Positions 6,156 through 61,339 are shown, counted from the first letter of the stretch. The stretch is 64,000 bases of DNA from a candidate division WOR-3 bacterium (GCA_023129325.1 JAGMCI010000012.1:37850-101849); one strand, 5' to 3'. The notes: generated from the sequence alone by a model not told the origin. Made by a program: numbers and translations.

Positions 6156-7412
6156 TTGATGAAAAGAAACATAGAAAGACACGCCTGCCTGACGGCAAGG
6201 CAGGGATATAGGCACGGAAAGATACACCCGCCTGCCCGCTTCGCCTGCCTCGCCCACGAGTCAAGGCGGGCCAAAGCTTCAGCGAGGCGAGCCATCTGTC
6301 GGGTAGGGAAATTTAATTCCTATCTTATTTTCTGGTCCATACGGATATTGGGAGTAATATTTTTAATCTTTCCTATCCGGATTTATGGAAATGAAAAACC
6401 CGATACTTCTTTATGGCACAAGTACGAAATTTTACCTAAAAAGGGATTGTTCAAAATAAAGAGAGAGTATTCATTTCCACTTCACGATATTCTTGGCAAG
6501 GAAAAAATTTATGCCCGATGCATTGCAGCTGCACCAATAGGAGGATTAAGAGAAGAAATTCAAATTTCACTTGTGAAAATCCCTTTAAAGAAAAAGATTA
6601 TCTTCCCTCTTGCTTTTGAAGAACTTCCTATTTCTGAATTGCAAAGAGAAAAGGAGCTTGAAATTTCAAAATCCGTAATTGAGGAGCAACAAGAACTCCC
6701 AAAACCAATAAAAATTGAAATTACACCGTTGGAAATAGAGAGACCTATAATTGCAGAAATCTCTCCACCAGCGAAAATAGAAACCAAGAAGATAAAAATA
6801 ACTGCTATTAAAGCCCTTGGAGTAATCAAAGAAGAAAGCTCAATTCCCCTTTTGAGAGAAGCTTTAAAAGAAAAAGAATGGAGTATAAAGCGTGAGGCTG
6901 CCGGGGCTTTAGCAGAACTTGGCGATACGATAGGACTTTCTTTTCTCAGGACAGCTCTTGAAGAGAAAGAAACAGCCAAGAAACTTGAAATCATAAGTAC
7001 TCTTGGAAGGATAGGAGATATTGCTTCAGTTCCGTTTTTAAGAAAATTGTTAGACCATAAGGAGTGGGCAGTAAGACGGGAAGCGGCTTTTGCCCTCTCG
7101 AAAATAGGAGACAAGACTGGTCTTTCATTCTTGCAAAGAGCAGTTGGTTCAGAAGACTCTAACAAAAAGATTGAGGCGGCGATGGCATTGGCAGAAATAG
7201 GAGATGACACTGGACTCCCGGAATTAATCTGTCAACTGACAGACAAGGATAGTCATACATCTGTGAGAATCGCGGCTCTTAAATCCATTGGAAAAGTAGG
7301 AAAAAAGAATATCATTCCTGTATTAAATGAGATAATGAAAAAAGACCCTGAACTCATAGTTAGAATTATAGCTTCAGAAAGTATATTAAAGATTAATAAA
7401 AGGAGGAAATAA
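6156..7412 (+). CDS. HEAT-repeat membrane protein, paralogue of the two flanking genes but without a zinc ribbon. The annotated 5' ~150 nt are a GC-rich repeat element, so the start is uncertain.
   Basis: TM-like ILGVIFLIFPI. C-terminal ~200 aa are tandem HEAT units (ALGVIKEESSIPLLREALKEKEWSIKREAAGALAELGD...). The first 50 codons translate the repeat element at 6183-6309. Confidence 0.55.
   Translation: MMKRNIERHACLTARQGYRHGKIHPPARFACLAHESRRAKASARRAICRVGKFNSYLIFWSIRILGVIFLIFPIRIYGNEKPDTSLWHKYEILPKKGLFKIKREYSFPLHDILGKEKIYARCIAAAPIGGLREEIQISLVKIPLKKKIIFPLAFEELPISELQREKELEISKSVIEEQQELPKPIKIEITPLEIERPIIAEISPPAKIETKKIKITAIKALGVIKEESSIPLLREALKEKEWSIKREAAGALAELGDTIGLSFLRTALEEKETAKKLEIISTLGRIGDIASVPFLRKLLDHKEWAVRREAAFALSKIGDKTGLSFLQRAVGSEDSNKKIEAAMALAEIGDDTGLPELICQLTDKDSHTSVRIAALKSIGKVGKKNIIPVLNEIMKKDPELIVRIIASESILKINKRRK
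6183..6309 (+). repeat. GC-rich element, family B, long form ~125 bp.
   Basis: The reverse complement of its 3' half matches 8214-8270 almost exactly (CCCTRCCCGACWGATGGCTCGCCTCGCTGAAGCTTTGGC…GGCGGG). A partial relative lies at 37544-37614. Confidence 0.8.
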
Positions 7413-8212: not shown

Positions 8213-8213
8213 T

Positions 8214-8270
8214 CCCTGCCCGACTGATGGCTCGCCTCGCTGAAGCTTTGGCGAAGCGGGCAGGCGGGCG
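8214..8270 (-). repeat. Family B element, short form, inverted relative to 6183-6309.
   Basis: Direct sequence comparison. Lies immediately after the stop of gene 7412-8212. Confidence 0.8.
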
Positions 8271-8685: not shown

Positions 8686-8843
8686 ATATTAAATTCAAAA
8701 TCCCAATGCTCCAAATAGGAGTAATAACAGTTTGAAATTTGGAGAATTGGGATTTGTTTAGTCCTGAATTTAATTCAGGATCGGATTTAGGAATTAGGAT
8801 TTTAATTTTTAATTTGTCATTTTGCATTTTAATTTTTGAATTT

Positions 8844-9356
8844 TTATTTCTTGTATATCACTCTTCCTTCCTTAGTTTCTACCTCTATTTTTTCAGGGAC
8901 CACACCGTCAAAATCCATAACAAGTCGCATCACATCTTCTGATGATTTAGCTTTAAGTAATGCCTCCTTTAATACCTTTGATTTTAAGAACCTTGCGACT
9001 TTTGCTACAGCTTGTAAATACTCTTTGCGTGCCTCAATTGGGGCAGCAATCATAAAAATTAAGTGAACTGACTTCTTATCAAGAGCCTTAAAATCAACAC
9101 CTTCCTCTGACTTTCCGAAAGCTACTTTAAGCTCCTTTGCCGTATCAGACCTCCCGTGAGGAATGGCAATACCACTCCCAATAGCCGTTGACTCTATTTC
9201 TTCCCTTTTCTTAATGACCTGAAGGAATTTATCTTTATCAGTCACAATCCCCTTGTTCACAAATAATTCTACAAGCCCCTCAATAACTGCAAACTTATCT
9301 TTAGAGACAAGATTGCAATTTATGAGCTTCTCATCTATTAGTTCTTGTAATAACAT
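8844..9356 (-). CDS. ptsN: PTS EIIA type-2 (PtsN / nitrogen-regulatory IIA-like) domain protein.
   Basis: Active-site histidine motif GIAIPHGR and the overall EIIA(Fru/Ntr) layout. RBS aaggagg precedes the start. Confidence 0.7.
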   Translation of the reverse strand: MLLQELIDEKLINCNLVSKDKFAVIEGLVELFVNKGIVTDKDKFLQVIKKREEIESTAIGSGIAIPHGRSDTAKELKVAFGKSEEGVDFKALDKKSVHLIFMIAAPIEARKEYLQAVAKVARFLKSKVLKEALLKAKSSEDVMRLVMDFDGVVPEKIEVETKEGRVIYKK

Positions 9357-10606: not shown

Positions 10607-12135
10607 CTCAGTCGTATCCTTTCCTTCTCAATTCTCTTTATTTCTTTAACTGGGATTTGGGTTGGATAATTACCCGTGAAACAGGCAGTGCAATAAGAAT
10701 TTTTTGCACTTCTGACTTCTGTATCACCAACAGCCCTTAACATACCTTCAAGAGATTGATAAATGAGTTCATCAACCCCAATTTGTGCCTTTATTTCAGA
10801 AATGCTCTTTTCTCGGGCTATAAAGTCTTGCTTCGTTTGCATATCAATCCCATAGAAACAAGGATATTTAAGGGGTGGACAGGATGAAATAAAATATATC
10901 TTCTTGGCACCCGCCTTCCTCACTAAAGATGTGATGGCTTTGGATGTGGTGCCACGAACAATAGAATCGTCTACTAATAATACCTTCTTTCCCTGTATTT
11001 CTTGTTTTACAGGATTAAGTTTGTACCTTACATATTCTAATCTCCTTTCGTCCCTTGGCATTATAAAAGTCCTGGCTACATACCTATTTTTTATAAGGCC
11101 CTCCCTGTAAGGAACACCAAGAGTATTGGCTAAAGATAAAGCAGTTGCCCTGGCTGTATCTGGCACAGGAATTACAACATCCGGTTTAAGACCAGACTTT
11201 TTTATCTTCTTAGCAAGCTCTTCGCCAAGTCTTAATCTGGTCTCATATACAGATACATTGTCAAGAACAGAATCAGGCCTTGCAAAATAAATATATTCAA
11301 AAATGCAATGCCTTGGACTCGGTGGCTTAATAACTTTTGAAATGACTTTCCCTTTAAGGTCTATAAGTATTGCCTCACCTGGATTTACATCCCTGATTTC
11401 ATCATAGCCAAGAGTGTCAAGAGCAACTGATTCAGATGCAAAACAAAAATTATTAAATTTGGACCCCTCAGCTGGGTAGGTTGAAAGGGACCCCCCAGTT
11501 GGGTAGGTTGAAGCCTCTGCTTCAACCTTGCATCCAAATTTTAAAGGCTTTATACCATGAGGGTCTCTAAAAGCAAGAAGTCCAATATTGGCAATGAAAG
11601 AGATGCAGGAATAACTTCCAGTTACTCTTTCCATCACTCTTTTAACAGCTTCAAAAACAGGTTTTTCCCCACCTATGGATGGAGCCCACATATTGGTCTC
11701 AAGTTCAGAAGCGAGAACATTTAAGATAATCTCAACATCACTTTTCGTATTTATGTGGCGATGTCGCTTATTCACAAGCCATTTCCTTAAACTCTCATAA
11801 TTTATGACATTCCCATTATGAGCTATGGCTATGCCAAAAGGAGTATTTGTATAAAAAGGTTGCGCATCCTCAGGGTCCCCAGCTCCAATTGTCGGATACC
11901 GAACATGACCAATCCCGATTGAACCCTTAAGTCGAGTCAGGTCTTGCGGATTAAAAAGGCTCTGGACAGTCCCTTTGCCTTTTTTTAAATAAAATCTACC
12001 ATCCTTATTCGCAGAATGCTGTGCATAAGTTATAATTCCAGCCGCATCCTGCCCCCTATGCTGTATAGCAATCAGCCCAAGCCAGAGCTTGGAAGCTACA
12101 TCACGCTCGCCAAATATCCCAATAACACCACACAT
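10603..12135 (-). CDS. purF: Amidophosphoribosyltransferase (glutamine PRPP amidotransferase). It contains an in-frame repeat insertion at 11470-11527.
   Basis: N-terminal MCGVIGIFG (Ntn cysteine). PRTase motif VLLVDDSIVRGTT. A C-terminal CxxC cluster is present. The inserted segment KVEAEASTYPTGGSLSTYPAEGS is encoded by a duplicated repeat element. Confidence 0.9.
   Translation of the reverse strand: MCGVIGIFGERDVASKLWLGLIAIQHRGQDAAGIITYAQHSANKDGRFYLKKGKGTVQSLFNPQDLTRLKGSIGIGHVRYPTIGAGDPEDAQPFYTNTPFGIAIAHNGNVINYESLRKWLVNKRHRHINTKSDVEIILNVLASELETNMWAPSIGGEKPVFEAVKRVMERVTGSYSCISFIANIGLLAFRDPHGIKPLKFGCKVEAEASTYPTGGSLSTYPAEGSKFNNFCFASESVALDTLGYDEIRDVNPGEAILIDLKGKVISKVIKPPSPRHCIFEYIYFARPDSVLDNVSVYETRLRLGEELAKKIKKSGLKPDVVIPVPDTARATALSLANTLGVPYREGLIKNRYVARTFIMPRDERRLEYVRYKLNPVKQEIQGKKVLLVDDSIVRGTTSKAITSLVRKAGAKKIYFISSCPPLKYPCFYGIDMQTKQDFIAREKSISEIKAQIGVDELIYQSLEGMLRAVGDTEVRSAKNSYCTACFTGNYPTQIPVKEIKRIEKERIRLS
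11470..11527 (-). repeat. Family G hairpin element (GGGTAGGTTGAAGCCTCTGCTTCAAC), duplicated and in-frame in purF.
   Basis: Perfect 8-bp stem GTTGAAGC/GCTTCAAC. Other copies at 3735-3760 (in C25, encodes EAEASTYP) and 37713-37738 (intergenic). Confidence 0.8.
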
Positions 12136-15875: not shown

Positions 15876-15903
15876 GAAATCAATGCAAAGTTAGCAATTA
15901 TCA

Positions 15904-16266
15904 ATGAGTAAAAAGAAAATTTCTGGAAATGATTTGGCAGAGCGTTTACTTGACTTCGCAGTGAGAGTCATTAAACTTGTAAATACTTTGCCGAAGACAG
16001 CTGTGGGGAAACATGTTGGAGGACAGCTTATGCGTGCGGGAACATCTGCAGGCTCGAATTATGAAGAAGCATGTGGTGCTGAATCCAGGCCTGACTTCGT
16101 TCATAAATTAGGTATTGCACTAAAGGAACTCAAAGAATCTCGCTTTTGGCTACGGGTCATTCACCGGGTTGAACTTATTGCTCCTCAACGTGTTGAGTCA
16201 CTGCTTCAGGAGTGTGAAGAATTATGTGCTATTATCGCAAAAAGCATCCTTACAGCAAAAAGGTGA
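15904..16266 (+). CDS. Four-helix-bundle protein of the 23S rRNA-intervening-sequence protein family.
   Basis: 120-aa helical protein; GTSAGSNYEEACGAESRPDFVHKLGIALKELKESRFWLRV matches the TIGR02436 family signature. A ~50-bp copy of its 5' end recurs at 35960-36010. Confidence 0.55.
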   Translation: MSKKKISGNDLAERLLDFAVRVIKLVNTLPKTAVGKHVGGQLMRAGTSAGSNYEEACGAESRPDFVHKLGIALKELKESRFWLRVIHRVELIAPQRVESLLQECEELCAIIAKSILTAKR

Positions 16267-19436: not shown

Positions 19437-20822
19437 ATGCTTGAAGAAAAGATAAAGACAAAGCAAGCCAAAGTTTGCATAATTGGACTTGGTTATGTGG
19501 GGCTTCCACTGGCAATCCATTTTGCCAAAAATGGATTTAAAGTTTTGGGACTTGATATTAAAAAAGAACGAGTAAATCTTGTGAATCAGGGTAAAAGTTA
19601 TATTGAAGATGCATCAGAATTAGAGCTCAAAAAACTTGTAACCTCAAAGAGACTGAGTGCTACCTGGGACTATGCTAAAATCCCTGAATACGATGTAATC
19701 CAGATATGCGTTCCAACACCTGTAGATATTAATAAAGAACCCAATATTTCTTATTTAGTTGCTACTGCTGATGAAATTCAAAAAAGACTTCGTAAAGAAC
19801 AACTTATTATATTAAAAAGCACCAGTTTTCCAGAAACTACAGAAAATGTTCTCCTCCCAATACTTGAAAAATCAAGACTTTGTGCCAGAGGCACATCCCG
19901 ATTTGCATCGGGAAAAGTTGGTAAAGACTTTTATCTTGCTTTTTCACCTGAGAGAATAGACCCCGGGAACAAAAGGTTTACTACAGAAAATACTCCAACA
20001 GTTGTGGGAGGCATAACTCCGAAATGCACTAAACTTGCTACTCTTCTTTACAAGAGTGTTATAGATAAAGTGATTTCCGTTTCTTCCGCACGGGTGGCTG
20101 AAATGACAAAACTTCTTGAAAATACTTTTAGAAATGTAAACATAGCACTTGTAAATGAATTAGCTCAGTTATGTGAACGTATGAATATAAATATTTGGGA
20201 AGTAATAGATGCGGCGAAAACAAAACCATTTGGATTTATGCCATTTTATCCAGGACCAGGAGTTGGAGGACATTGTATTCCTATAGACCCTTATTATCTC
20301 TCCTGGAAAGCGCGTGAATATGATTTCCATACTTCATTTATAGAGCTATCTGCAAAAGTAAACGAATCAATGCCTTACTATGTGGCAAATAAAGTAATTG
20401 AAGCATTAAGCACGCAAGGGGTATGTCCATCAGCAGGAAAGATACTTATTTTAGGTGTCACATTTAAGCCTGATGTCAGAGACATTCGGGATTCACCTAT
20501 ATTAAAACTAATAAAAATTCTTGAACCACGCGTAAAAGAAATAATATATAATGACCCTTATATAAAAGAAATAGAAGTCCCTACAGGGACTGTCCCTCTG
20601 ACTTTAAAGGGACTGTCCCTATATAAGTCTAAGACATTAACTCAAAAACTATTAAAAAGCGTAGATTGCGTTATCATAGCCACCAACCACAAAGCCTATG
20701 ATTATCCCTGGCTTGTCCAGAACGCAAGTCTTATAGTAGACACCCGTAATGGCACAAAAGGCATTCCTGCCCGACGCCTCACGGGCGGGAAAGGAGGTAA
20801 TATAATAAGGCTTGGCTGTTAG
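19437..20822 (+). CDS. Nucleotide-sugar dehydrogenase (UDP-N-acetyl-D-mannosamine / UDP-glucose 6-dehydrogenase family). It has in-frame palindromic insertions at 20576-20620 and a GC-rich element at 20766-20789 in the C-terminus.
   Basis: IGLGYVGLP Rossmann motif. Catalytic region GFMPFYPGPGVGGHCIPID. C-terminal IPARRLTGGKGG is encoded by the GC-rich element. Confidence 0.8.
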   Translation: MLEEKIKTKQAKVCIIGLGYVGLPLAIHFAKNGFKVLGLDIKKERVNLVNQGKSYIEDASELELKKLVTSKRLSATWDYAKIPEYDVIQICVPTPVDINKEPNISYLVATADEIQKRLRKEQLIILKSTSFPETTENVLLPILEKSRLCARGTSRFASGKVGKDFYLAFSPERIDPGNKRFTTENTPTVVGGITPKCTKLATLLYKSVIDKVISVSSARVAEMTKLLENTFRNVNIALVNELAQLCERMNINIWEVIDAAKTKPFGFMPFYPGPGVGGHCIPIDPYYLSWKAREYDFHTSFIELSAKVNESMPYYVANKVIEALSTQGVCPSAGKILILGVTFKPDVRDIRDSPILKLIKILEPRVKEIIYNDPYIKEIEVPTGTVPLTLKGLSLYKSKTLTQKLLKSVDCVIIATNHKAYDYPWLVQNASLIVDTRNGTKGIPARRLTGGKGGNIIRLGC

Positions 20823-29645: not shown

Positions 29646-30881
29646 ATGAAGATACTCTTCTTTTTATCTCTTGGAATTTTGTTATATGTATATTTTGGTT
29701 ATCCCTTACTTCTGCTTATTCTTTCTAAAATAAAGAAACCGCACAACCGCAGCACTGCACAACTGCAATCTTTCCCTTCAGTTTCCCTTATCATACCTGC
29801 TTACAACGAGGAAGAAATAATAGAGGAAAAAATTAAAAATAGTTTCTCACTTGACTACCCCGGAAAAGTTGAGATAATCCTTTCTTCTGATGGTTCAACA
29901 GACAAAACAGTAGAGATTACTTCAAAATTCAAGAAAGTAAAAATAAACGATTTTAAAGAAAGAAAAGGGAAAATGGCAACATTAAATAGGACGCTTCGTG
30001 GCAGCTATGAAGGAACGAAAGCACCAACAGGTGAAATTATTATTTTCACTGATGCAAATGCTATGTTTGAAAAAGATGCTTTAAAAAACCTCATCCGTAA
30101 TTTTGCCGATAAAAGCATTGGCTGTGTGTGCGGGGCAAAACGAATAAAGAAAGAGAACCTCCCTGCCCGCCGCTCCGCTTTGGCAGGCGGGTGCTCTCAT
30201 TTGGTAGGCGGGTGTGAAAAAACTTACTGGAAAATGGAGAACTTCTTAAAAGAAAAGGAAAGTGAAATTGGTTCCTGCATTGCAGATGGCTCAATATATG
30301 CTTTGAGGAAAGAACTTTACCCTTTTCCAAGAGAGGATAAAATTATTATGGATGATTTTGCTATCTCTCTGGGAATAATAAATAAAAATTACAGAGTTGT
30401 TTTTGAGCCTAAGGCAGTGGCATATGAGAGTGCATCTTTAAACACTTTTGCTGAATTTAAAAGAAAGGTGCGAATCCTGGAGGGAGCACTTGCGACAATA
30501 CTTTCTTGTCCAATAAAGCGAGTTGGTTTCCAAATTGTATCCCACAAAATATTACGCTGGCTTGGAGGTATATTTATGATTACCCTGTTAATTTCAAACC
30601 TGTTTATTGCCTGCCCGACATCTGGTAGGCGGGAAAGTATCTCCTATCAAGTATTTTTGATGGTGCAAATGTGTTTTTATTTATTCGCATTAGTTGGTTT
30701 TGGAGCAACTGCTATAACTGTAGCCATCCCGATTTCATCGGGACGGAAACACAAAATATTCTCTCTGTTTTATTCGCCATTTTATTTTTGCTTGACAAAT
30801 TTAGCTCAAGTGATAGGATTTCTTAAATATATAGTAGGAAGTAAACAACCATTTTGGGAAAGAGCAGAAAGAATCCGTTAG
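29646..30881 (+). CDS. Membrane glycosyltransferase family 2. It carries two in-frame GC-rich element insertions.
   Basis: SLIIPAYNEEEII...SSDGSTD GT2 motifs and C-terminal TM helices. Inserts at 30160-30213 (PARRSALAGGCSHLVGGC) and 30610-30633 (ACPTSGRRES). Confidence 0.65.
   Translation: MKILFFLSLGILLYVYFGYPLLLLILSKIKKPHNRSTAQLQSFPSVSLIIPAYNEEEIIEEKIKNSFSLDYPGKVEIILSSDGSTDKTVEITSKFKKVKINDFKERKGKMATLNRTLRGSYEGTKAPTGEIIIFTDANAMFEKDALKNLIRNFADKSIGCVCGAKRIKKENLPARRSALAGGCSHLVGGCEKTYWKMENFLKEKESEIGSCIADGSIYALRKELYPFPREDKIIMDDFAISLGIINKNYRVVFEPKAVAYESASLNTFAEFKRKVRILEGALATILSCPIKRVGFQIVSHKILRWLGGIFMITLLISNLFIACPTSGRRESISYQVFLMVQMCFYLFALVGFGATAITVAIPISSGRKHKIFSLFYSPFYFCLTNLAQVIGFLKYIVGSKQPFWERAERIR
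30160..30213 (+). repeat. GC-rich short element, family E (CCTGCCCG…GGCAGGCGGG / TTGGTAGGCGGG), in-frame in the GT2 gene.
   Basis: Related short copies at 2976-3003, 5356-5380, 20766-20789 and 30610-30633. All share CCTGCCCGAC-N(8-10)-AGGCGGG. Confidence 0.75.
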
Positions 30882-30889
30882 CTAACGGG

Positions 30890-32287
30890 ATGAAGAGAAA
30901 AAGTGATATTATATTTTTTCTTGTGCCAATTGTTTTGGATGCGGCTCTCATTATGCTCGCTTTTAATCTTTCCTATTGGATAAGATTTTACTCAGGGCTG
31001 ATACCAATAACTAAAGGAATACCCGTAATAAGACCTTACTTGTTGCTTTCAGGATTTGCCGCCATAGTGTGGATTATTGTTTTTTACATCTCAGGATTCT
31101 ATGACATAAAAAAGACTCCAGCATTAGCAGATGAGATTTATCAAATTTTGAGAGGAATAGTTATAGGAATAGTAATTGTCCTTCTGCCTACTTTCTTTTA
31201 TAGGGAGTTCACATTTTCACGAATTACTATCTTACTTGCTTATGTTTTAGGAGCAGGATTAACTGTACTGGGGAAAATGAGTATTAGAATGCTAAAAATT
31301 GCTTTATACCACAGGGGAATAGGAATCCATAATGCTTGTATAGTGGGCGGTGGCGAATCAGCAAAGGAAGTACTGAAAAAATTTAGTCAAAATCCGGTCG
31401 CTGGATATAAATTGGTCGGACAAATTATAGAAAAAGAAAGAAATACAGTAGTGCATTTATTGCCTGTGCTTGGTAAACTTTATCAATTACGAGAAATAAT
31501 CAAACTACATAAAATAGATACTCTTATTTTAACATTTTCTTTATCTGAACACAAAAAAATAGCAAAAATACTCATTAAATGTAATGGTTTACCTGTGGAT
31601 TTAAGATTTGTTCCTGACCCATATGAATTGCTTACATCAAGAATTGGATATTACGAACTCGATGGCTTTACACTCCTTGGCTTAAAAGAATTCCCTTTAA
31701 CACATTGGAATGCTTTATTAAAAAGCATATTTGACATCGTAATAACAAGTATTTTGCTTATACTCTGCTTGCCAATTATTATAATCAGTTCAATATTTGT
31801 AAAGCTTTCCTCTAAGGGCCCTCTATTTTATCATCAGGAAAGAGTTGGAAGAGACGGAAATAAGTTTAATATAATTAAATTTAGAACTATGAAGGTTAAT
31901 GCAGAAGCTTCAACAGGACCTATTTTTGCTACTGCTAATGACTCAAGAATTACAAGATTCGGGAGAAAGCTTCGTAGATGGAGCATTGATGAAATTCCAC
32001 AGCTAATTAATGTCCTTAAAGGAAATATGAGTCTTGTTGGACCAAGACCAGAGCGTCCAGAGTTTGTAAAGAAATTCAGTAGTGAAATATCACGTTATCT
32101 GGAACGACATAGAGTAAAACCAGGCATTACAGGCTGGGCACAGGTGAATGGATTAAGAGGTGATACTTCAGTCAAAGAGAGAGTAAAGTATGACTTGTAT
32201 TACATAGAAAATTGGTCGTTTGGCTTGGATATAAAAATTTTACTACGAACATTTATTGCCACATTAAAAGGAGAAAATGCGTATTAA
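30890..32287 (+). CDS. Undecaprenyl-phosphate sugar phosphotransferase (bacterial sugar transferase, WbaP/WcaJ-like).
   Basis: N-terminal TM bundle. C-terminal KFRTM...DEIPQL...GNMSLVGPRP signature. Confidence 0.85.
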   Translation: MKRKSDIIFFLVPIVLDAALIMLAFNLSYWIRFYSGLIPITKGIPVIRPYLLLSGFAAIVWIIVFYISGFYDIKKTPALADEIYQILRGIVIGIVIVLLPTFFYREFTFSRITILLAYVLGAGLTVLGKMSIRMLKIALYHRGIGIHNACIVGGGESAKEVLKKFSQNPVAGYKLVGQIIEKERNTVVHLLPVLGKLYQLREIIKLHKIDTLILTFSLSEHKKIAKILIKCNGLPVDLRFVPDPYELLTSRIGYYELDGFTLLGLKEFPLTHWNALLKSIFDIVITSILLILCLPIIIISSIFVKLSSKGPLFYHQERVGRDGNKFNIIKFRTMKVNAEASTGPIFATANDSRITRFGRKLRRWSIDEIPQLINVLKGNMSLVGPRPERPEFVKKFSSEISRYLERHRVKPGITGWAQVNGLRGDTSVKERVKYDLYYIENWSFGLDIKILLRTFIATLKGENAY

Positions 32288-33821: not shown

Positions 33822-33965
33822 TGATGGTGATTCGTATAAATTCATGGTTTGATTTAACCACAGATGAACGCAGATAGACACAGATATTTTTGTTTTAATT
33901 CGTGGTTATAATTTTTGCATTTTAATATGTATTTTTAATTTTTGATATTTGATTTTTAATTTGAT

Positions 33966-34913: not shown

Positions 34914-35936
34914 ATGAAAGAATATGAAAAAGGAGGGATGATGAAAAAAATAACTGTTATTGGTGCTGGATACTGGGGCCCAAATTTAATCAGGAATTTT
35001 TACGAACTCGGCTGTCTTAAAACAGTATGTGATAAAGATGAAAAAAAACTGAATAAAATAAAGAACAAATACCCAAATGTCAAATTTACTTCTAATGTAA
35101 ATGAGGCAATCCGTCAGCCGACGGATGCAGTAGTCATAGCTACTGGAGGGGATACTCATTATGAACTTGTGAAAAAGGCATTACTCGCAAATAAGGATGT
35201 ATTCGTTGAAAAGCCTCTCACCTTATTTGCTGAACAAGCTCGTGAGTTAGTTGCATTATCAAGAAAAAAAACTCGTATACTTATGATAGGGCATCTTTTG
35301 CTTTACCACCCGGCAGTTAAAAAACTAAAAGAGTATGTGAATGACGGAACTCTTGGGAAAATATATTATGTCTATTCCCAACGTGTAAACCTTGGAAAAA
35401 TAAAAAAGGATGAAGACGCTTTATGGAGTTTTGGGCCACATGATATTTCTGTTATCTTGTATCTGGTCGACTTATTTCCTACTAAAGTTGTCGCTACAGG
35501 AGATTCATATTTGCAAACTAATATACCAGATGTCGTTTTCGTTACTCTTTATTTCCCCCAAAAAATACTTGCTCATATCCACCTTTCTTGGTTAGACCCA
35601 CATAAAATAAGAAAAACTACAGTCGTGGGGTCTAAAAAGATGGCTGTATTTGACGATATGGAAGCAACAGAAAAAATACGAGTGTATGATAAGGGAGTAG
35701 ATTATAAACCCTCTTTCAAACCTTATGGAGAAGCATTGACTCTTAGAGTTGGAGATATAGTTATTCCTAAACTTGATTCAAAAGAACCCCTGAAATCAGA
35801 ATGTCAACACTTCCTGAAATGTATAACCGAAAGAACTAATCCTTTATCAGATGGAGAAAATGGACTCCAAGTCACTAAAATCCTTGAATCAGCCCAGCAA
35901 TCACTAAGAAAAGGAGGTATGCCAGTTGAAATATAA
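34914..35936 (+). CDS. Gfo/Idh/MocA-family oxidoreductase (UDP-sugar 3-dehydrogenase-like).
   Basis: ITVIGAGYWGPN Rossmann motif and the EKPL motif. Carries an in-frame ATCCGTCAGCCGACGGAT palindrome at 35106-35124. Confidence 0.8.
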   Translation: MKEYEKGGMMKKITVIGAGYWGPNLIRNFYELGCLKTVCDKDEKKLNKIKNKYPNVKFTSNVNEAIRQPTDAVVIATGGDTHYELVKKALLANKDVFVEKPLTLFAEQARELVALSRKKTRILMIGHLLLYHPAVKKLKEYVNDGTLGKIYYVYSQRVNLGKIKKDEDALWSFGPHDISVILYLVDLFPTKVVATGDSYLQTNIPDVVFVTLYFPQKILAHIHLSWLDPHKIRKTTVVGSKKMAVFDDMEATEKIRVYDKGVDYKPSFKPYGEALTLRVGDIVIPKLDSKEPLKSECQHFLKCITERTNPLSDGENGLQVTKILESAQQSLRKGGMPVEI

Positions 35937-35959: not shown

Positions 35960-36010
35960 GCAGTGAAAAGTTAGCAATTATCAATGAGTAAAAAGAAATT
36001 TCCCAGAGAT
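35960..36010 (+). repeat. Duplicated fragment of the 5' end of the 23S-IVS-family gene (direct repeat of 15886-15935).
   Basis: aagttagcaattatcaatgagtaaaaagaaa(a)tttc is shared by both sites. The second copy has no intact ORF of that family; only a ~58-codon low-complexity ORF remains. Confidence 0.75.
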
Positions 36011-36156
36011 GATAGTGTGATAAAAGGAAAAAGGGGAAACAGGACAAAAGGGGGAAAATTTAATATATTTTATTCCTTTCCCTTTTCCCAATTTTTCCAC
36101 TCTGTGGTGAAGGTCGTGGTGAACCATTTTCCCTTATTTACACAAATCTGTGTCTA

Positions 36157-37026
36157 ATGAAAAAAATTTTAGCCTTTATCAGCCTCTTAAGACCTTTAAA
36201 TGGAATTATTGGAGCATCGTCTGTCTTTATTGGAGCTTGGCTAACTCATAAAAAGATTATCCCCATAGACCTTGCATTAGCTTGTATAGCTTGTTTCTTA
36301 ATAATAGGGGCTGGTAATGCTATAAATGACTATGTAGATGCTGAAATAGATATGATAAATAAACCTAAAAGACCAATCCCATCTGGTAAGGTTACAAAAC
36401 GACAGGCTCTTATTATATCTACTATACTCTTCATTCTCGCCTTGGAGATTAGTCTTAAAATATCAATTAATGTGTTCATTATTGCCCTCGTTAGTTCATT
36501 GCTTCTATTAGTTTATAATTTCAATTTAAAAAGAAAAGGAATTTCAGGTAACATTCTTGTGACTTGCCTTGGAGGAATGCCTTTTGTATACGGAGGGGTT
36601 GTTGTTAAATCATGGCTTCCCACACTTATTCCTTTCTCATTTGCCTTTTTATTACATCTTAGTAGAGAAATACTAAAGGATATTATTGATATTAAAGGGG
36701 ACAAAGTTATAAAAAGCATATCTTTCCCAATTAAACACGGAATAAAAAAATCTATCAACTTAACAATTTTAGTTTTATCTGTCCTCATATTGCTTACACC
36801 AATGCCTTTTATCTTCCATTTATACGGAATGCCTTATCTCATTGCCGTCTTAATTTGTATAGACCTGACACTTGGTCTTATAATTTATAAACTATTACGC
36901 CCAGTGGCACTCCGTCAGCTGACGGAGTGGACAGGCGAGGATAAATCCTTTATTCCAAAAGCCTGTAACCTGCTCAAATTTAATATGGTTATCGGGCTTG
37001 GAGTTTTGGCATTAGGTTATTATTAG
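36157..37026 (+). CDS. UbiA-family prenyltransferase. It has a GC-rich palindrome insertion near the C-terminus.
   Basis: NAINDYVDAEIDMINKPKRPIPSG Asp-rich UbiA motif. 8-9 TM helices. Insert 36908-36929 (CACTCCGTCAGCTGACGGAGTG) encodes LRQLTEW. Confidence 0.7.
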   Translation: MKKILAFISLLRPLNGIIGASSVFIGAWLTHKKIIPIDLALACIACFLIIGAGNAINDYVDAEIDMINKPKRPIPSGKVTKRQALIISTILFILALEISLKISINVFIIALVSSLLLLVYNFNLKRKGISGNILVTCLGGMPFVYGGVVVKSWLPTLIPFSFAFLLHLSREILKDIIDIKGDKVIKSISFPIKHGIKKSINLTILVLSVLILLTPMPFIFHLYGMPYLIAVLICIDLTLGLIIYKLLRPVALRQLTEWTGEDKSFIPKACNLLKFNMVIGLGVLALGYY

Positions 37027-37035
37027 GAGGAAAAG

Positions 37036-37683
37036 ATGAAAAACTATTTTGTTCATCCAACTGCTGTTGTTGAAAAAGGAGCTAAAATAGGTAAAGAAAC
37101 AAAAATTTGGCACTTCTCACACATAATGAAAGGAGCAAAAATTGGTAAAAATTGTTTGCTTGGTCAAAATTGCTTCGTTGCTAAAGATGCAATTCTTGGA
37201 AATGGGGTAAAGCTTGAAAACAATGTCTCTGTCTATACATTTGTGACCCTCGAAGATGATGTATTTGTTGGACCTTCAGCTGTATTTACAAATGATTTAA
37301 ACCCAAGAGCCCCTTATCCAAAAGGAGGAAAATGGATTGCTACTTATGTGCAAAAAGGAGTATCAATTGGAGCAAATGCGACCATTGTTTGTGGTATCAA
37401 TATAGGTAAATGGGCTTTCATAGGTGCTGGAGCAGTCGTGACAAAAAATATTCCTGATTATGCTATAGTTGCTGGTGTTCCCGCAAGAGTCATAGGCTGG
37501 ATGTGCGAATGTGGACAAAAACTTAAATTTAAGCCCTCCCGCCAGATGGCCCGCTTCGCCCTGTCTCGCCGAGCCAAGGCGGGCGGAGCTTCAGCAAAGC
37601 GAACAGGCGGGGAGGAAAAGGCAACTTGTCAAAAGTGCGGCAGAAAATACCATAAAGAAGGTCTTAAATGTAGTCTTATTTAA
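37036..37683 (+). CDS. Hexapeptide-repeat N-acetyltransferase (WbpD/PglD-like). Its C-terminal zinc ribbon is interrupted by a GC-rich element.
   Basis: Left-handed beta-helix hexapeptide repeats ([13 protein letters not shown]...). C-terminus reads CECG…[27 aa encoded by element 37544-37614]…CQKCG. Confidence 0.75.
37544..37614 (+). repeat. GC-rich element related to families B and C, inside the C-terminus of the acetyltransferase.
   Basis: CCCGCTTCGCC…CTGTCTCGCCGAGCCAAGGCGGGCGG…GCTTCAGC. Shares blocks with 6183-6309 and 40644-40674. Confidence 0.7.
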
Positions 37684-37995
37684 GCTATTTTTTATATATA
37701 GCTTTAATCATAGGGTAGGTTGAAACCTCTGCTTCAACTCTCATAATTTGTAATCTGTAATTCAGAATTTATAATTTTTAACTTCCTGCTTTCTACCTTC
37801 TGTGTTCTCCGCAAACTCTGCGGTTCAGGTCATCTTTGGAGTGCAAAAACGGTGCTCTTGTAAAAAGATTGTGGGCACGCCTGTCGTCAACAACGGGGAT
37901 TTCAAATCGTGCAAATGTAACAATGCTACAACCACAGACCTTGCCTTGCTAAAAATCAATGTAGGGCAAACCTTTAGGTTTGCGGAATGCAGACT

Positions 37996-38427
37996 TTAGT
38001 CTGCCTTAGGAGAAATTTTATCTGAGAACTTTTGCTCTGCAATTAAGAATGCCTCTTTAACATTCTTCCAGCGAGCACAGTAAGGGGATGAACTATACTT
38101 TCCTTTGGAATTAATTAATGCGTGGGTGGGTTCCTTTCCATACTCGTTATAAAGACGAATTAAGTCTAATAATAATTCATCATCCTTTATCAATTCTTTC
38201 TCACGAATCATATCTGCAGGGTTGATAGGTATCAAACCAGCTTCTTTGACTGCATTATTCCATAAGCCAAAATGATACCTCGCTGTACCTAAAGAAATCT
38301 TTGAATGCTTATTAAAATCTTTACTCTTTAGTGATTTTACACCCAGAGCGGATGCAATTCTTCTGATTTCTTCAATTATTTGCTGTTTTGTAACTCCGTA
38401 TATGCGAACTTGAGTTTGACTACGCAT
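37996..38427 (-). CDS. Hypothetical protein with two homing-endonuclease-associated-like repeats (…YHFGLWNNAVKEAGL / …YCARWKNVKEAF).
   Basis: 143-aa ORF on the opposite strand to its neighbours, bracketed by ~30-bp direct repeats at 37799-37829 and 38641-38690. A terminator-like hairpin (GGGCAAACCTTTAGGTTTGC) lies at 37962-37984, downstream of its stop. Confidence 0.4.
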   Translation of the reverse strand: MRSQTQVRIYGVTKQQIIEEIRRIASALGVKSLKSKDFNKHSKISLGTARYHFGLWNNAVKEAGLIPINPADMIREKELIKDDELLLDLIRLYNEYGKEPTHALINSKGKYSSSPYCARWKNVKEAFLIAEQKFSDKISPKAD

Positions 38428-38727
38428 CCCTGTGTCTGAAAAAATTCCTATTATACTTCTTATTTTACCATATCCTTTACATTTGTCAAGTATTTTTAGT
38501 CTAATTTATTATACTAATATAAACCGCAGATACATCACAGAATATCAAAATGCAAAATAGTCGGATAGATTATTGGTTTAATCTAATAAACTAACAAACC
38601 AGCAAACTGAACATCTTTTTGCATTAGCATTCTGTGTATCTGTGTTCCCCGTTTGCCAAAGCCTTGTGCGGCGGGCAGGTCTGCGGTTCTTATTCGTGTA
38701 ATTTGTGTAATTCGTGGTTGATTTTTC

Positions 38728-40125: not shown

Positions 40126-40417
40126 ATTATGCAGAGATTAGTTCTGCAAAATAGAAAATAAAATTGACAGGGATTGAAAGAGTCCCGCATCCAGCACATA
40201 ATTTATGTGCGGGATAAGAGATGAGAATAAAAAGCAATGACGGACAAGATTAACAGGATTAAAGAATATATGAAATTAAATAAAAATCCTGTAATCCGCC
40301 TGAGGCGGACTGTCAAATTAAATCACTGTTAATAATGAAGTTCTTTTCGACTTACAATAATTTTGAATTTTAATTTGTAATTTTGATTTTTGATTTTATA
40401 GAGAAAGGAGGTAATTT

Positions 40418-41689
40418 ATGATAGGAATAATATTAGTATTTCTTGTCAGTGACACATTAAAAATAAACCTTGACCAAGCCAAGGAGATAGCACTTAAAGG
40501 TAACCCAACATATCAAGTGCAGACACTTTCTCATACATACAATAAATTAGGACTTTATGAGAACTTGGCTTCAGATATACTTAATCCAGCTGTCGGTATT
40601 ACATACTCTGAAGCAACATTTGGTGATTACTCTTATCCTTCGTCACCTGTCTCGCCGAGCCAAGGCGGGAAGGGCTATAATTTTAGCTTCTCTTTAAACC
40701 AGCCGGTATTTGATTTTGGGAAAGCATCCTCAATACTACAAAGCAAATTTAGCACCAATGCCTCTTTAGCATCAAGCTGGGAAGCTGAAAACCTGCTATA
40801 TTATCAAGTAGAAGGACAATATCTTACTGTCCTTAAAGTAGAAAAATTACTTGGAATGCGTAATAAGGCTATTGAACGAGCAGAAGAAAATATGAGATTC
40901 GTAACTAAAAGATTAGAATTGGGAAAGGCGTCAAGATTAGACTTTTTAAATGCAACAGTCTATCTTAATCGTGCTAAGCTTGATTTATCTGATACCCGTA
41001 AAAATTATACTATTGCTAAAAGATTATTATTAAATATACTTGGGCTTAGGCATCAATGTGAACTTTTGCTTGAACCAGTTGAGATTGAAGACGGAAAGTT
41101 TGAGTTACCAGAACTAAATATACTCATAACAACAAGCATTGAAAATAGACCAAAAATTAAAGCCGCTTATGAAGAAGTTAAAGAAGCACGACTTGGAGTT
41201 TGGAGCAGTTTCTTTTCATTTCTGCCCCAAATATCGTTCAAATGGTCCTGGAACTATAATACAGAGAATTTCCCAGACAAATTTTCAACAATAAGAAACG
41301 GGGCAACAAAGAACACAGGGTGGTATGCAACTGCGAATCTAAATTTATTTTCCTATCCATTTGAAGTTTGGAAGACAAAGACCATCCTTGACAAAACCAA
41401 TTTGAATCTGTTAAATGAAAGACTGATTGTAGTTAAAGAAGTTGAAGAGGCAAGGCTTGATTGTCTTACTATGAACGAAAATCTAAAACTTGCCAAAAGT
41501 ATGTTTGAAGCTGCCAGGGAGGGGAATGCACTCGCTAAAACACAGTACAAGCTCGGATTGATACCAATCCTTGACTTGTTTCAAATAGAAACAGACTTGT
41601 TGGACGCCGAGGCAACCTATATTTCTGCCCTGTATGATTATAAACTTGCAAGAACTAAACTCAAGTATGTAATTGGAGGTAAACTATAA
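40418..41689 (+). CDS. Outer-membrane efflux protein (TolC-like OMF). It has an in-frame GC-rich insertion at 40644-40674.
   Basis: Two OEP-type repeat halves with coiled-coil and beta segments. RBS aaggagg 7 nt upstream. The insertion encodes [11 protein letters not shown]. Confidence 0.7.
   Translation: MIGIILVFLVSDTLKINLDQAKEIALKGNPTYQVQTLSHTYNKLGLYENLASDILNPAVGITYSEATFGDYSYPSSPVSPSQGGKGYNFSFSLNQPVFDFGKASSILQSKFSTNASLASSWEAENLLYYQVEGQYLTVLKVEKLLGMRNKAIERAEENMRFVTKRLELGKASRLDFLNATVYLNRAKLDLSDTRKNYTIAKRLLLNILGLRHQCELLLEPVEIEDGKFELPELNILITTSIENRPKIKAAYEEVKEARLGVWSSFFSFLPQISFKWSWNYNTENFPDKFSTIRNGATKNTGWYATANLNLFSYPFEVWKTKTILDKTNLNLLNERLIVVKEVEEARLDCLTMNENLKLAKSMFEAAREGNALAKTQYKLGLIPILDLFQIETDLLDAEATYISALYDYKLARTKLKYVIGGKL
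40644..40674 (+). repeat. Family C element (CCTGTCTCGCC…CAAGGCGGG), in-frame in the TolC-like gene.
   Basis: Second copy at 58727-58756 in the BNR protein. Shares its core with 37561-37590. Confidence 0.7.
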
Positions 41690-51642: not shown

Positions 51643-51734
51643 TGCAAAATATAAAATTAGCAATGCAAAATTAACAATTCTTTGTTTAAGCCAACAAGTT
51701 TATACTTCATTTTGAATTGCTAATTGCTAATTTT

Positions 51735-51974
51735 TCAATTTTCATTTATTTTTACTATTATTCTTCGAGCCATGCCACGCCCAAGAGCTACTTGAGTTCT
51801 GCCGACCTGAATCACTACAGGGCCACCCATAAGCTGTGAACTCATCTTCTTTATAATCACGCCTTCCCTTACCCCAAGAGCCTCGAGTTTCCTCCTTAAA
51901 CCAAACCCACCGCCAATTTCCACAACCCTGCCGCTCTCTCCAACCTTTAATTCCATTAAAGATAAATTCTTCAT
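51735..51974 (-). CDS. feoA: Ferrous iron transport protein A.
   Basis: 79-aa SH3-like FeoA (…LKVGESGRVVEI…LGVREGVIIKK…). Confidence 0.8.
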   Translation of the reverse strand: MKNLSLMELKVGESGRVVEIGGGFGLRRKLEALGVREGVIIKKMSSQLMGGPVVIQVGRTQVALGRGMARRIIVKINEN

Positions 51975-58701: not shown

Positions 58702-60914
58702 TTTATTTAATCTTTTTGGCAGCAAGCCTGTCTCGCCTGTCGGCAGACAAGGCGGGTCACTTACAAACTTCGGACTACTGGGCTCAATCAATCTGGGATG
58801 GCGGTCCAGGACAACTTATGTGGGAAGATACAACACGGTATCTTAATACTCTTAATATAGATGGTAGAATATTCCCTGGTGAAATCAGACTCTTTGCACC
58901 ATCAGGAAATTGGGAGTCATCAGTTGAACTTGATATTTGGAGAGTCAATACTATTATTGCAGATACAGGAGGTATAATATATGCTGGGTGTAGCTATGAC
59001 AGTTCAATGGTGCTTAAATCACGACTGGTCAAACTTAAGGATTATGGAAATAGCTTTGTATGGGAAAAAACATTAGGAGGCTCGGATGTTTATTCACTTT
59101 TTTTACTTAAAAATGGCAATTTATTGGCAGGAGCTGGTACCTACCTTTATATATTCCCTGATGCGGAGCTTGAACCAGTTTATATAAAATCATTTAGTGG
59201 CAATATTTTAAGTCTTTATCAACCATGGGATTTTAATTATGTTTATCTTGGGACATCTGCTGGACAAATCTGGTATTCAAATAAAAATGGAGCGCAAGGG
59301 ACCTGGGAAAAGTGTCCCGGTTTACCCTATCAAGCTGGAAGTATTAATCAAATTTTTGAATCTTCAAATAAAATATTTTATGCCTGCACTGGACCTGGTT
59401 ATGGCGGAAAAGTATTCTGGTCAGTAGAAAAGGAGGGCATATATTGGGATTTATTGAAGTCATTTAGTGGAATTGATGCAATTTACTCTATCTGTGAAGA
59501 CCCGAGCCATAATTTATATATAAGCGGTGTAAGCAATGATGGGAGTGGTAAGCTTTATACTTCCTCTGATTCAGGTAAATCATGGCAGACAATTAATTCA
59601 CCCTGGGAAGAAGCTGATTTTTATCATATTCTTGCAGATTCAAATGGTAGCCTGTATGTGGGTGGTTGGTGTAGAGGAGCTAAAGCACCAAAAGGAATGA
59701 TTTTCACATCAAAAGATAAAGGAGAGACCTGGGATACCCTGTATAAGCCTCAAGGAGTCTGCCCTTCTTATATTAAAGCCCTTTATCAGACAAGAGAGGG
59801 TATTTTACTTACAGGTGGTGATACTAATGTAGTTTTGAGGTCAGGCTATAGTACAACAGGCTGGCTTGAGTCCTCTGTTTACGATGTCTTTGAAAATGCA
59901 TCCAGAGTTAATAGAAGCTTGCAATTTAAAAGACTACACTGGGATGGAAATCTAAATGGTGGCAATATAAAGATTAAAGAGAGGTCAGGACTTCTTGATT
60001 CAATCCCTGATTCTATGCTTGGCTGGGATAGATGCTATCCTGTACCACAAGATGGAAATCCAGTAGACTATAACGGTGCATTTGATGGTGATAGATATAT
60101 CCAATATCGGGTAGAATTATCATCTTCATCTTCCATTAAGACGCCTGTGGTATCACTGATTTACACAAAATTTACATATGATACCACATGCCCTTACATT
60201 GTATCAGCAATAGCCAGCGATGGTGATAGTGCCTTGCCAGGAATAGATGATGATGACTATGTAGATATTAAGTTTAGCGAATCAATGAATGCATCTCGGA
60301 TTGAAACTCGTAATATTGACAAGGCTTTAAAGCTAAGTCAAGGACATTCTTGGAGAAGTGATTCAGGACGCGGAGTTATTAAGAGAACTGGAGAATGGGT
60401 TACTCCTTCTATACTGAGAATTTATCTCTCTACCTTGAGAATAGGAGATGGAGCTGGTTATCCACCCACTATTGAGATTGGGGACACAATAACTCCTGAT
60501 TCTACAATCATTCAAGATGTCTGGGATAACCCTTGTTTTTCTCCTTGCGTAATTACAGGTTCTTTTTCTAAGACAGGCACCGAAGAAAGTAGGAAGTGGG
60601 AAGTAGGAAGTGGGAAGTTAAAGATTTATCCTAATCCATTCAGCACAAAGACAGTCATTAGTTATTCGTCATTAGTCATTAGTGAGAAAAATCTTAATGA
60701 CCAATTACCAATGACCAATAACCTGCAACACGTAGTGTTGCGTATTTATGACCTCTCTGGAAGACTAATAAAAACCTTGGTGAATGAAAACAAATCGCCA
60801 AGCACTTACAAGTTTAAACTTCACAAGGATAGCCTGAAATCGGGCATCTATTTCTTAAAACTTACAGTTGATAACAAAACTATTGACACTCAAAAACTAA
60901 TTCTCCTCAAATAA
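58695..60914 (+). CDS. BNR/Asp-box repeat beta-propeller protein with T9SS C-terminal sorting domain. It carries repeat insertions.
   Basis: Asp-box motifs SSDSGKSWQ and SKDKGETWD. CTD KIYPNPFSTKTVISY…LRIYDLSGRLIKTL…GIYFLKL. Insertions at 58727-58756, 60584-60620 and 60653-60686. Confidence 0.6.
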   Translation: MLIYLIFLAASLSRLSADKAGHLQTSDYWAQSIWDGGPGQLMWEDTTRYLNTLNIDGRIFPGEIRLFAPSGNWESSVELDIWRVNTIIADTGGIIYAGCSYDSSMVLKSRLVKLKDYGNSFVWEKTLGGSDVYSLFLLKNGNLLAGAGTYLYIFPDAELEPVYIKSFSGNILSLYQPWDFNYVYLGTSAGQIWYSNKNGAQGTWEKCPGLPYQAGSINQIFESSNKIFYACTGPGYGGKVFWSVEKEGIYWDLLKSFSGIDAIYSICEDPSHNLYISGVSNDGSGKLYTSSDSGKSWQTINSPWEEADFYHILADSNGSLYVGGWCRGAKAPKGMIFTSKDKGETWDTLYKPQGVCPSYIKALYQTREGILLTGGDTNVVLRSGYSTTGWLESSVYDVFENASRVNRSLQFKRLHWDGNLNGGNIKIKERSGLLDSIPDSMLGWDRCYPVPQDGNPVDYNGAFDGDRYIQYRVELSSSSSIKTPVVSLIYTKFTYDTTCPYIVSAIASDGDSALPGIDDDDYVDIKFSESMNASRIETRNIDKALKLSQGHSWRSDSGRGVIKRTGEWVTPSILRIYLSTLRIGDGAGYPPTIEIGDTITPDSTIIQDVWDNPCFSPCVITGSFSKTGTEESRKWEVGSGKLKIYPNPFSTKTVISYSSLVISEKNLNDQLPMTNNLQHVVLRIYDLSGRLIKTLVNENKSPSTYKFKLHKDSLKSGIYFLKLTVDNKTIDTQKLILLK

Positions 60915-61016: not shown

Positions 61017-61215
61017 AGATTTTGTAGCCGTTCCGATGTATTGGTTCATTTAATGAATATTCTGTGTCTTTCTGTGTCTATTTTTCTCTGTGCCCTTCTG
61101 TGGTTGACTTTTTTGCTTGACAAATTGAGAACCTATTGTAAAATGGCATTGTGCAAAGAGCGTTGACTAAAGTTATAAAAGTGGAAAAAACCGTGAACCA
61201 AAAAGAGAAAGATTC

Positions 61216-61267
61216 TCCCGCCTGTCCGTCTCCGTCCCACTTCGCTTGTCGGAGCGGGGCGGGCAGG
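61216..61267 (-). repeat. Family A element, reverse orientation.
   Basis: The reverse complement matches the 51-bp consensus with 3-4 mismatches. Confidence 0.8.
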
Positions 61268-61339
61268 GAAATAGTTAAACTTAGGTGCAGGGTGAGGATA
61301 AAAGAAGCTGGTGCCTCCGGCTTTAAATTGCCCAAACAT

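Follow-up and report, generated by a model that had tools for sequence, protein, structure and literature searches.

The gene for a WlbB/WbpD-like sugar 3-N-acetyltransferase with a left-handed beta-helix fold (37036..37683, + strand, 215 aa; assigned by Pfam, PDB and Foldseek comparisons) in a candidate division WOR-3 bacterium contains, within its reading frame, a GC-rich composite palindromic repeat of 78 nt that is missing from the gene of the closest homologue. All positions refer to the 64,000-nucleotide stretch of DNA that was analysed, hereafter called the window. The repeat occupies 37534..37611 (+ strand), with boundaries uncertain by about 3 nt, and corresponds to 26 codons, P167-G192. 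We consider it probable that a non-autonomous selfish palindromic repeat was inserted in the acetyltransferase gene, is read through and is tolerated in a permissive surface loop of the enzyme. According to this proposal, Module B, a hairpin of 54 nt whose loop holds the 24-nt hairpin of Module A, would have landed in the gene at a codon boundary, in the middle of a loop joining the CxC and CxxC halves of a four-cysteine motif, and read-through of the 78 nt would add 26 Arg/Ala/Gly-rich residues to the protein.

The open reading frame at this locus, whose tail reads exactly as the initial annotation had quoted it for a hexapeptide acetyltransferase, encodes a protein identical to one deposited at NCBI for 'candidate division WOR-3 bacterium' (hereafter the query). 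It matches the Pfam Hexapep model with E=6.5e-25, among solved structures, WlbB of Bordetella petrii (3MQG) is the closest relative (E=6.6e-59, 46% identity), and comparison of its AlphaFold model with 3MQH by Foldseek gave a TM of 0.93. Homologues are named WlbB/WbpD-type in several sources. The adjacent gene at 34914-35936, which precedes the acetyltransferase gene, codes for a Gfo/Idh/MocA UDP-GlcNAc 3-dehydrogenase-like protein, and the surrounding polysaccharide cluster comprises, upstream, genes for an NDP-sugar dehydrogenase, an epimerase and glycosyltransferases, as well as one for a polyprenyl glycosylphosphotransferase. Both the 3-dehydrogenase and the sugar dehydrogenase genes of a Wbp-pathway neighbourhood are thus present; an aminotransferase gene was not identified in the scanned part of the cluster. 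Because of the fold, the similarity to 3MQG/3MQH and the gene cluster, WlbB/WbpD-type sugar 3-N-acetyltransferase is the best functional label. The query shares the left-handed beta-helix, the topology of the tail and the adjoining Gfo/Idh/MocA gene with WlbB (3MQG/3MQH) and WbpD, which are UDP-2-acetamido-3-amino-2,3-dideoxy-glucuronate N-acetyltransferases. With 215 aa it is longer than its homologues (188-208 aa), with the exception of P0049 and P0073 (223 aa).

Two further candidate cassettes were observed around the acetyltransferase gene. Downstream, a gene for a protein of 143 aa on the opposite strand (37996-38427, - strand) contains only two 'homing endonuclease associated repeat' domains (PF18780) and is bracketed by direct repeats of the form TCTGTGTTCYCCG...CTGCGGTTC (37799-37830 and 38639-38689), which are absent elsewhere in the window; gene and flanking repeats may form a small mobile cassette. 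Upstream, between the dehydrogenase gene and a gene for a UbiA prenyltransferase, lies a stretch (35961-36013) that is 87% identical to the start region (15881-15933) of a '23S rRNA intervening sequence protein' gene (PF05635; 15904-16266). It heads an ORF of 57 aa (35984-36157) and, judged from this similarity, resembles a second, degraded copy of the small PF05635 cassette.

In order to delimit the insert, the gene was aligned at the DNA level with that of P0002 (L116), the closest homologue (72% identity over the full length and 80% over aligned columns), which left a clean gap of 78 nt in P0002; a recent polymorphism for presence or absence of the insert was not seen in any closely related genome. 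The right flank of the GC-rich run, GAGGAAAAGGCAACTTG, is common to the query and P0106, which stems from the same sampling project, in 17/17 nt, and is therefore host sequence, giving an insert of 78 nt. A longer insert of 81 nt, bounded by the outer arms CCTCCCGCC/GGCGGGGAGG, was dropped in favour of 78 nt, since P0106 has GAGG... as host sequence. The ancestral loop is read as GQKLKFK/EEKAT, i.e. the standard 12 aa, with the insertion point at the slash. The GC content of 37534-37614 is 71.6% compared to 36.3% for the rest of the ORF and, likewise, 36.3% for the window; only 4 of 63,919 segments of 81 nt in the window reach 71.6%. The GC-rich repeat noticed at the outset is thus real, and parts of it recur at 40646-40669 (24/24), 6226-6308 and 8213-8270. 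The initial annotation had assigned 27 residues to a repeat at 37544-37614: a GC-rich repeat does encode the segment, but the peptide marked there counts 30 residues, the run starts at 37534 and the insertion amounts to 26 aa.

The insert can be read without a stop codon in five of the six frames, because the element is GC-rich and stop codons are AT-rich. The tetranucleotides CGTC/GACG and GTAG/CTAC are absent throughout 37534-37611, no target-site duplication is visible at 37534/37611 and there is no T-tract terminator at the insert. An exceptional stability of the hairpin was considered and rejected, as the z scores relative to shuffled sequence were -0.79 (RNA) and 0.04 (DNA). A search of the whole window against Rfam yielded nothing at the gathering threshold and, around the site, a single chance-level match with an E below 1; the insert itself did not match any intron or ribozyme family in Rfam. 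No tRNA or tmRNA genes were found.

The insert separates two pairs of cysteines, C157-E-C159 (37504..37512, + strand) and C198-Q-K-C201 (37627..37638, + strand), and all four residues are invariant in an alignment of 120 homologues. Of the two CxxC knuckles that had been described on either side of the inserted segment, the second is indeed of this type, while the first is CxC, resulting in the arrangement C-x-C ... C-x-x-C; their position on both sides of the 78-nt gap in P0002 was borne out. The spacer, defined as the residues between the second and the third Cys, was measurable for 103 sequences: 60 of them have 12 aa and another 38 have 13-20 aa, spacers of 23 aa and 25 aa occur in one sequence each, two sequences have 32 aa, and 38 aa are found in the query alone, so that the long spacer is not a property of distant homologues. 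The remaining length variation of the family is also confined to the position between loop residues 7 and 8. The second pair is not derived from the repeat, because all four Cys are invariant in the 120 homologues, which carry Cys pairs on both sides. In contrast to the query, WlbB, the only homologue with a solved structure, has S-R-H in place of C-E-C and no insert, and therefore does not have the four-Cys site. In the AlphaFold models, predicted beta-strands flank both Cys pairs, which, together with the invariance of the cysteines, would fit a putative zinc ribbon that may bind zinc; zinc-ribbon Pfam models gave no significant match when applied to the isolated tail.

The internal structure of the insert was resolved by blastn-short plus manual or MAFFT alignment. 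Rather than the single repeat that had been assumed, the insert proved to be made of two modules, one nested in the other, namely Module B of 54 nt and Module A of 24 nt, with every length being a multiple of three. It starts with the left arm of Module B, CCCTCCCGCCAGATGGCCCGCTTCGC (37534..37559, + strand), which aligns with 8213-8270 and 6226-6308, continues with Module A, CCTGTCTCGCCGAGCCAAGGCGGG (37560..37583, + strand), nested in the loop of Module B, and ends with the remainder of this loop plus the right arm, CGGAGCTTCAGCAAAGCGAACAGGCGGG (37584..37611, + strand), in which there are three G-to-A changes compared to the Module B consensus. A copy of one exact repeat was also searched for, and the 26 nt at the 5' end, with up to 3 mismatches allowed, matched only themselves; the insert is a mosaic. 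Module A is an imperfect palindrome with 9-nt arms, CCTG(C/T)CTCG and CAAGGCGGG; Module B is likewise an imperfect palindrome, with arms GCCCGCTTCGC and GCGAGGCGAGC and a loop holding AGCTTCAGC. Alignment revealed an intergenic copy of Module B without a nested Module A at 8213..8270 and a composite copy, with a 27-nt variant of Module A at the same nesting position, at 6226..6308. A solitary Module A, identical in 24/24 nt, lies at 40646..40669 (+ strand) in the gene for an outer-membrane efflux protein, where it is in frame and reads PVSPSQGG. The Module A copies at 37560, 40646 and 58727 have T at position 5 of the module, where other organisms have C, and this genome-specific base in three copies points to copying within this genome. 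The copy in the acetyltransferase gene is not a young one, and its hairpin is partly decayed and not visibly maintained, since it has the three G-to-A changes and folds no better than shuffled sequence. Among the approximately 35 ORFs of the window scanned with Pfam or NCBIfam, no transposase was found, including RAYT.

The window contains 19 GC-rich islands, most of which are related palindromes, and at least ten of the islands (at least nine besides the acetyltransferase insert) keep the reading frame of the long ORFs that contain them, mostly where a domain ends or in a linker. The window scan located them in a C25 peptidase (2966-3017, 3585-3678 and 5341-5397), in PurF between its two domains (11464-11503), at the C-terminal end of the NDP-sugar dehydrogenase (20749-20800), inside the domain of a GT2 glycosyltransferase (30148-30214), around the solitary Module A of the outer-membrane efflux protein (40635-40677) and in two secreted proteins (58716-58761 and 61213-61275). 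In the upstream UbiA prenyltransferase gene (36157-37026), a GC-rich perfect palindrome, CACTCCGTCAGCTGACGGAGTG (36896-36941, aa 247-262), is in frame just past the Pfam UbiA match and, by its sequence, is probably another in-frame repeat insertion.

Repeats of other types were noticed alongside. A second family, the hairpin GTTGAAGC-AGAG-GCTTCAAC-CTACCC, is present at 3735-3760, 11501-11526 and 37711-37738, and in a weaker form at 31895-31914; one copy lies 28 nt past the stop codon of the acetyltransferase gene, and two copies are located in ORFs, those of the C25 peptidase and PurF, where they are read as VEAEASTYP. AT-rich intergenic repeats of the TTTTAATTTTTAATTTGTCATTTTGCATTTTAA type occur at 8773-8849, 33893-33962, 40361-40410 and 51698-51760.

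In order to assess the distribution of the modules in other organisms, one genome per GTDB species was scanned for Module A using the pattern CCTGYCTCGCC-N4-12-CAAGGCGGG, which resulted in at least 115 loci; by our own estimate, 20 specified bases would be matched by chance some 10 times or more in 596 Gb, and more often where the DNA is GC-rich. In high-GC genomes, among them those of Streptomyces, Rhizobium and Variovorax, matches to the patterns of both modules have unconserved spacers and look like chance; these were set aside. At least 74 of the Module A loci have a GC content of at most 50% and show conserved spacers such as GAGT, GACGAGT and TGACGCGAGT. These low-GC loci are sharp GC islands in Patescibacteria (many classes), Omnitrophota, WOR-1, Planctomycetota and others. 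Among the matches listed, the module is 24, 27 or 30 nt long in 66 of the 74 low-GC loci, and at least 42 loci lie inside open frames with at least 30 codons on each side. The orientation within these ORFs, again among the matches listed, is plus in 25 and minus in 17 cases, with all six frames being used. Duplications of 2-6 nt were no commoner than expected by chance at 69 sites among the matches listed, and the flanks of these matches are not conserved except for R at -1 and Y at +1. According to Pfam, five copies lie inside known domains or proteins, i.e. the LeuRS editing domain, the BipA GTPase domain, TsaD, ComM and the tRNA-binding domain of PheT; further module-bearing genes are, from our own reading of the sequences, presumably those for RecG, ribonucleotide reductase and IleRS. 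Only 3 matches for Module A were obtained in 2.9 million viral contigs, so phages are no obvious reservoir.

The core of Module B (32 nt), GCCCGCTTCGCC-NN-AGCTTCAGC, is similarly widespread in metagenome contigs (L119-L238). Its right arm, GAGGCGAGC, is conserved in these copies though it was outside the search pattern, and 27 of 61 low-GC copies lie in long open frames. Both modules often nest in other hairpins and are seen as isolated GC islands, many of them within housekeeping genes, in AT-rich MAGs of Patescibacteria, Omnitrophota, WOR-1, Planctomycetota and further lineages. In 11 contigs (L122, L134, L135, L143, L157, L164, L174, L191, L201, L203 and L227), the Module B core is itself nested in another widespread palindrome, TGTCATTCCCGC...GCGGGAATGACA, an arrangement that points to a hierarchy of hairpin families inserting into one another. 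A literature search for the motifs of the two modules and for palindromic insertions in CPR or WOR-3 bacteria did not retrieve any description, which is not proof of absence. It is quite possible, although we propose this tentatively, that the modules form a superfamily of very small GC-rich hairpins which crosses phyla and is apparently undescribed, with Module A of the form R-CCTGCCTCGCC-(4, 7 or 10 nt)-CAAGGCGGG-Y and a Module B core of the form GCCCGCTTCGCC-NN-AGCTTCAGC-GAGGCGAGC, and that these modules nest in each other, are mostly 3n in length and almost stop-free, and colonise genes (aminoacyl-tRNA synthetases, translational GTPase, TsaD) of AT-rich uncultured bacteria such as Patescibacteria, WOR-3, WOR-1 and Omnitrophota. 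If this is true, the near-identical cores across phyla would mean that the modules have either spread horizontally or share a conserved machinery that mobilises or recognises them.

The effect of the insert on the protein was assessed by structure prediction with and without it, as had been proposed for this locus. The query was modelled by AlphaFold2 with 120 aligned sequences, and the mean pLDDT of the model was 92.9. Confidence drops towards the insert, from 87 for residues 161-170 to 70 for 171-180 and 63 for 181-190, with a helix predicted at 169-179, and returns to 90-97 for residues 191-215, where strands are predicted at 193-197, 204-208 and 211-214. The model of the insert-free P0002 (pLDDT 96.1) shows the same beta-helix and equivalent strands in the tail at 169-171, 178-182 and 185-188. 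The two models thus have the same high-confidence tail strands, and the insert is predicted to be looped out in the form of a short helix and a flexible loop while the beta-helix and the tail fold are kept. Since the predicted fold is kept and the insert bulges out, we infer that the enzyme probably still works and that the insertion is nearly neutral.

Insertions of other kinds are found at the same position of the loop in homologues. P0049 and P0073 have 20 extra residues there, encoded by an AT-rich repeat of the TTCGCGAAT type (L117:640-715 and 760-830 for P0049), which also extends the C-terminus and follows the stop codon. P0106 (L242) and P0090 (L243) have 13 and 11 extra residues, respectively, with a TTAAG-rich coding sequence. 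All three kinds of insertion start with a Pro codon. The loop, which has been struck independently at least three times, would fit a permissive site of a compact beta-helix enzyme, at which selection acts as a filter.

The repeated lengthening of this loop in the family could also be taken to mean that the insert was co-opted, i.e. that a basic helix with a net charge of +6 provides binding to membranes or polyanions, or recruits a partner, and is kept by selection. The helix at 169-179, predicted with moderate confidence by AlphaFold, and the age of the copy, which is old enough to have accumulated substitutions, would agree with such a role. However, the same nucleotide modules are present in unrelated genes and in intergenic DNA in both orientations, the peptide encoded by the insert is common to no homologue, and the three G-to-A changes look like AT-biased decay rather than conservation, and we consider co-option improbable.

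A function of the nucleic acid in cis seems unlikely to a similar degree. In this case, the insert would act as an mRNA hairpin affecting stability, pausing or translation, or as a DNA site for a protein of the nucleoid or gyrase type, as proposed for REP/BIME, with coding being incidental. The nested palindromic arms and the strong conservation of the Module A and B cores across phyla, which suggests that some conserved factor recognises them, speak for such a role. The 25 plus and 17 minus copies of Module A within ORFs, among the matches listed, argue against a strand-specific role of the RNA, and the insert has no Rfam match, a fold no more stable than that of shuffled sequence and no T-tract terminator.

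As regards the mobility of the proposed selfish repeat, target-site duplications are absent, the ends are hairpins, modules nest in the loops of other hairpins and both orientations are used, which suggests, by analogy, a hairpin- or single-strand-directed mechanism as proposed for REP rather than a DDE transposase.

The insert, 78 nt long and stop-free, would be read through. That it is translated, and not removed by bypassing or splicing, is suggested by its 3n length and open frame, since neither of these processes imposes either property. The opposite reading, according to which the insert is left out of the mature protein by translational bypassing, as in T4 gene 60 or in the 'byp' elements of yeast mitochondria, or by removal from the RNA, could draw on the presence of a GC-rich hairpin in AT-rich coding sequence and on the AAG codons that closely precede (37531) and follow (37618) the element. 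It is nevertheless very improbable: the frame is interrupted, by a stop or a length other than 3n, in bypass elements, which have matched take-off and landing codons, but is open across the 78 nt examined here, Module A measures 24, 27 or 30 nt in nearly all low-GC loci among the matches listed (66/74), and no intron or ribozyme family was matched. A repeat-induced chimera or a binning error hardly needs to be considered, since, although the source is a MAG and a single project supplied the contigs with the protein, the reading frame is kept across the junctions, the host sequence is collinear with the homologues on both sides and in-frame modules of the same kind occur in well over a hundred independent contigs.

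To our knowledge, the colonisation of genes by palindromic repeats in frame is textbook material for Rickettsia only. The Rickettsia palindromic elements (RPE) are inserted in frame in unrelated protein genes of an AT-rich genome, are read through and occupy sites compatible with the fold, as described by Ogata et al. (2000 Science 290:347; 2002 Genome Res 12:808) and recounted in a later article (PMC10969869); they end in a CGTC tag (PMC3733652). The 78-nt insert and the copies in the window resemble them in being palindromic, interspersed and in frame in coding genes. However, RPE measure about 100-150 bp, are restricted to Rickettsia and have the CGTC tag, whereas the units described here are 24 and 54 nt long, modular and nested, the core sequences of the modules span several phyla, and neither a CGTC nor a GTAG tag is present. 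The insert is therefore excluded from the RPE family by its length and the absence of the tag.

REP/BIME elements, which have a GTAG or CGTC tag and are associated with an IS200/IS605-like tyrosine transposase (RAYT) (PMC3733652), are alike in being short (20-40 nt), GC-rich, imperfect palindromes that are present in many copies and are often clustered or nested. They too lack target-site duplications, and a minority of REPs are intragenic. The sizes agree as well, Module A being 24-30 nt long with 9-nt arms and the core of Module B 32 nt. In contrast to REP/BIME, the GTAG/CGTC tag is absent from the consensus sequences of Modules A and B and from the insert, and the modules are frequently intragenic. 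No RAYT gene was found among the approximately 35 ORFs of the window that were scanned. Other precedents from bacteria are MITEs that create in-frame fusions, such as QMITE1 of Coxiella (PMC5896051), and intragenic ERIC and BOX elements (PMC10969869). MITEs share with the modules that they are small non-autonomous repeats with open frames that alter host proteins, but they have terminal inverted repeats and target-site duplications and are usually larger than 50-100 bp, whereas no duplication was detected for Module A.

Comparable elements are known from organelles. In fungal mitochondria, GC clusters, double-hairpin elements and 'byp' elements represent GC-rich hairpins that invade AT-rich genomes, and the byp elements, being skipped by the ribosome, need not be 3n long. 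Repetitive hairpin-forming elements have been described in sponge mitochondria (PMC2800124) and coding palindromes in those of Nematomorpha (PMC6649704). The mitochondrial repeats have in common with the modules that they are GC-rich, reside in an AT-rich host genome including its coding regions and are sometimes nested; they differ in being organellar systems.

Taken together, the kind of event observed here is known, and what appears to be new, in the sense that it was not found in the searchable literature, which is not proof, is the family of elements, the host phylum, the modular nesting and, most of all, the distribution across phyla. The single locus is a clean but modest case and more interesting as an entry to the wider phenomenon: an RPE-like process is now seen in a WOR-3 bacterium, apparently affecting about ten genes per 64 kb by means of much smaller modules, which are common to Patescibacteria and other candidate phyla. 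For annotators and users of structure prediction, the case is a warning that such segments represent selfish DNA and not functional motifs, and it accounts for a part of the odd 'lineage-specific insertions' and of the Arg/Ala/Gly/Pro-rich peptides in the proteomes of MAGs. The insertions act as a natural scan of proteins for loops that permit insertion, and the proposed superfamily of hairpin modules, if it holds true, would quite generally supply the proteins of these lineages with insertions in their loops.
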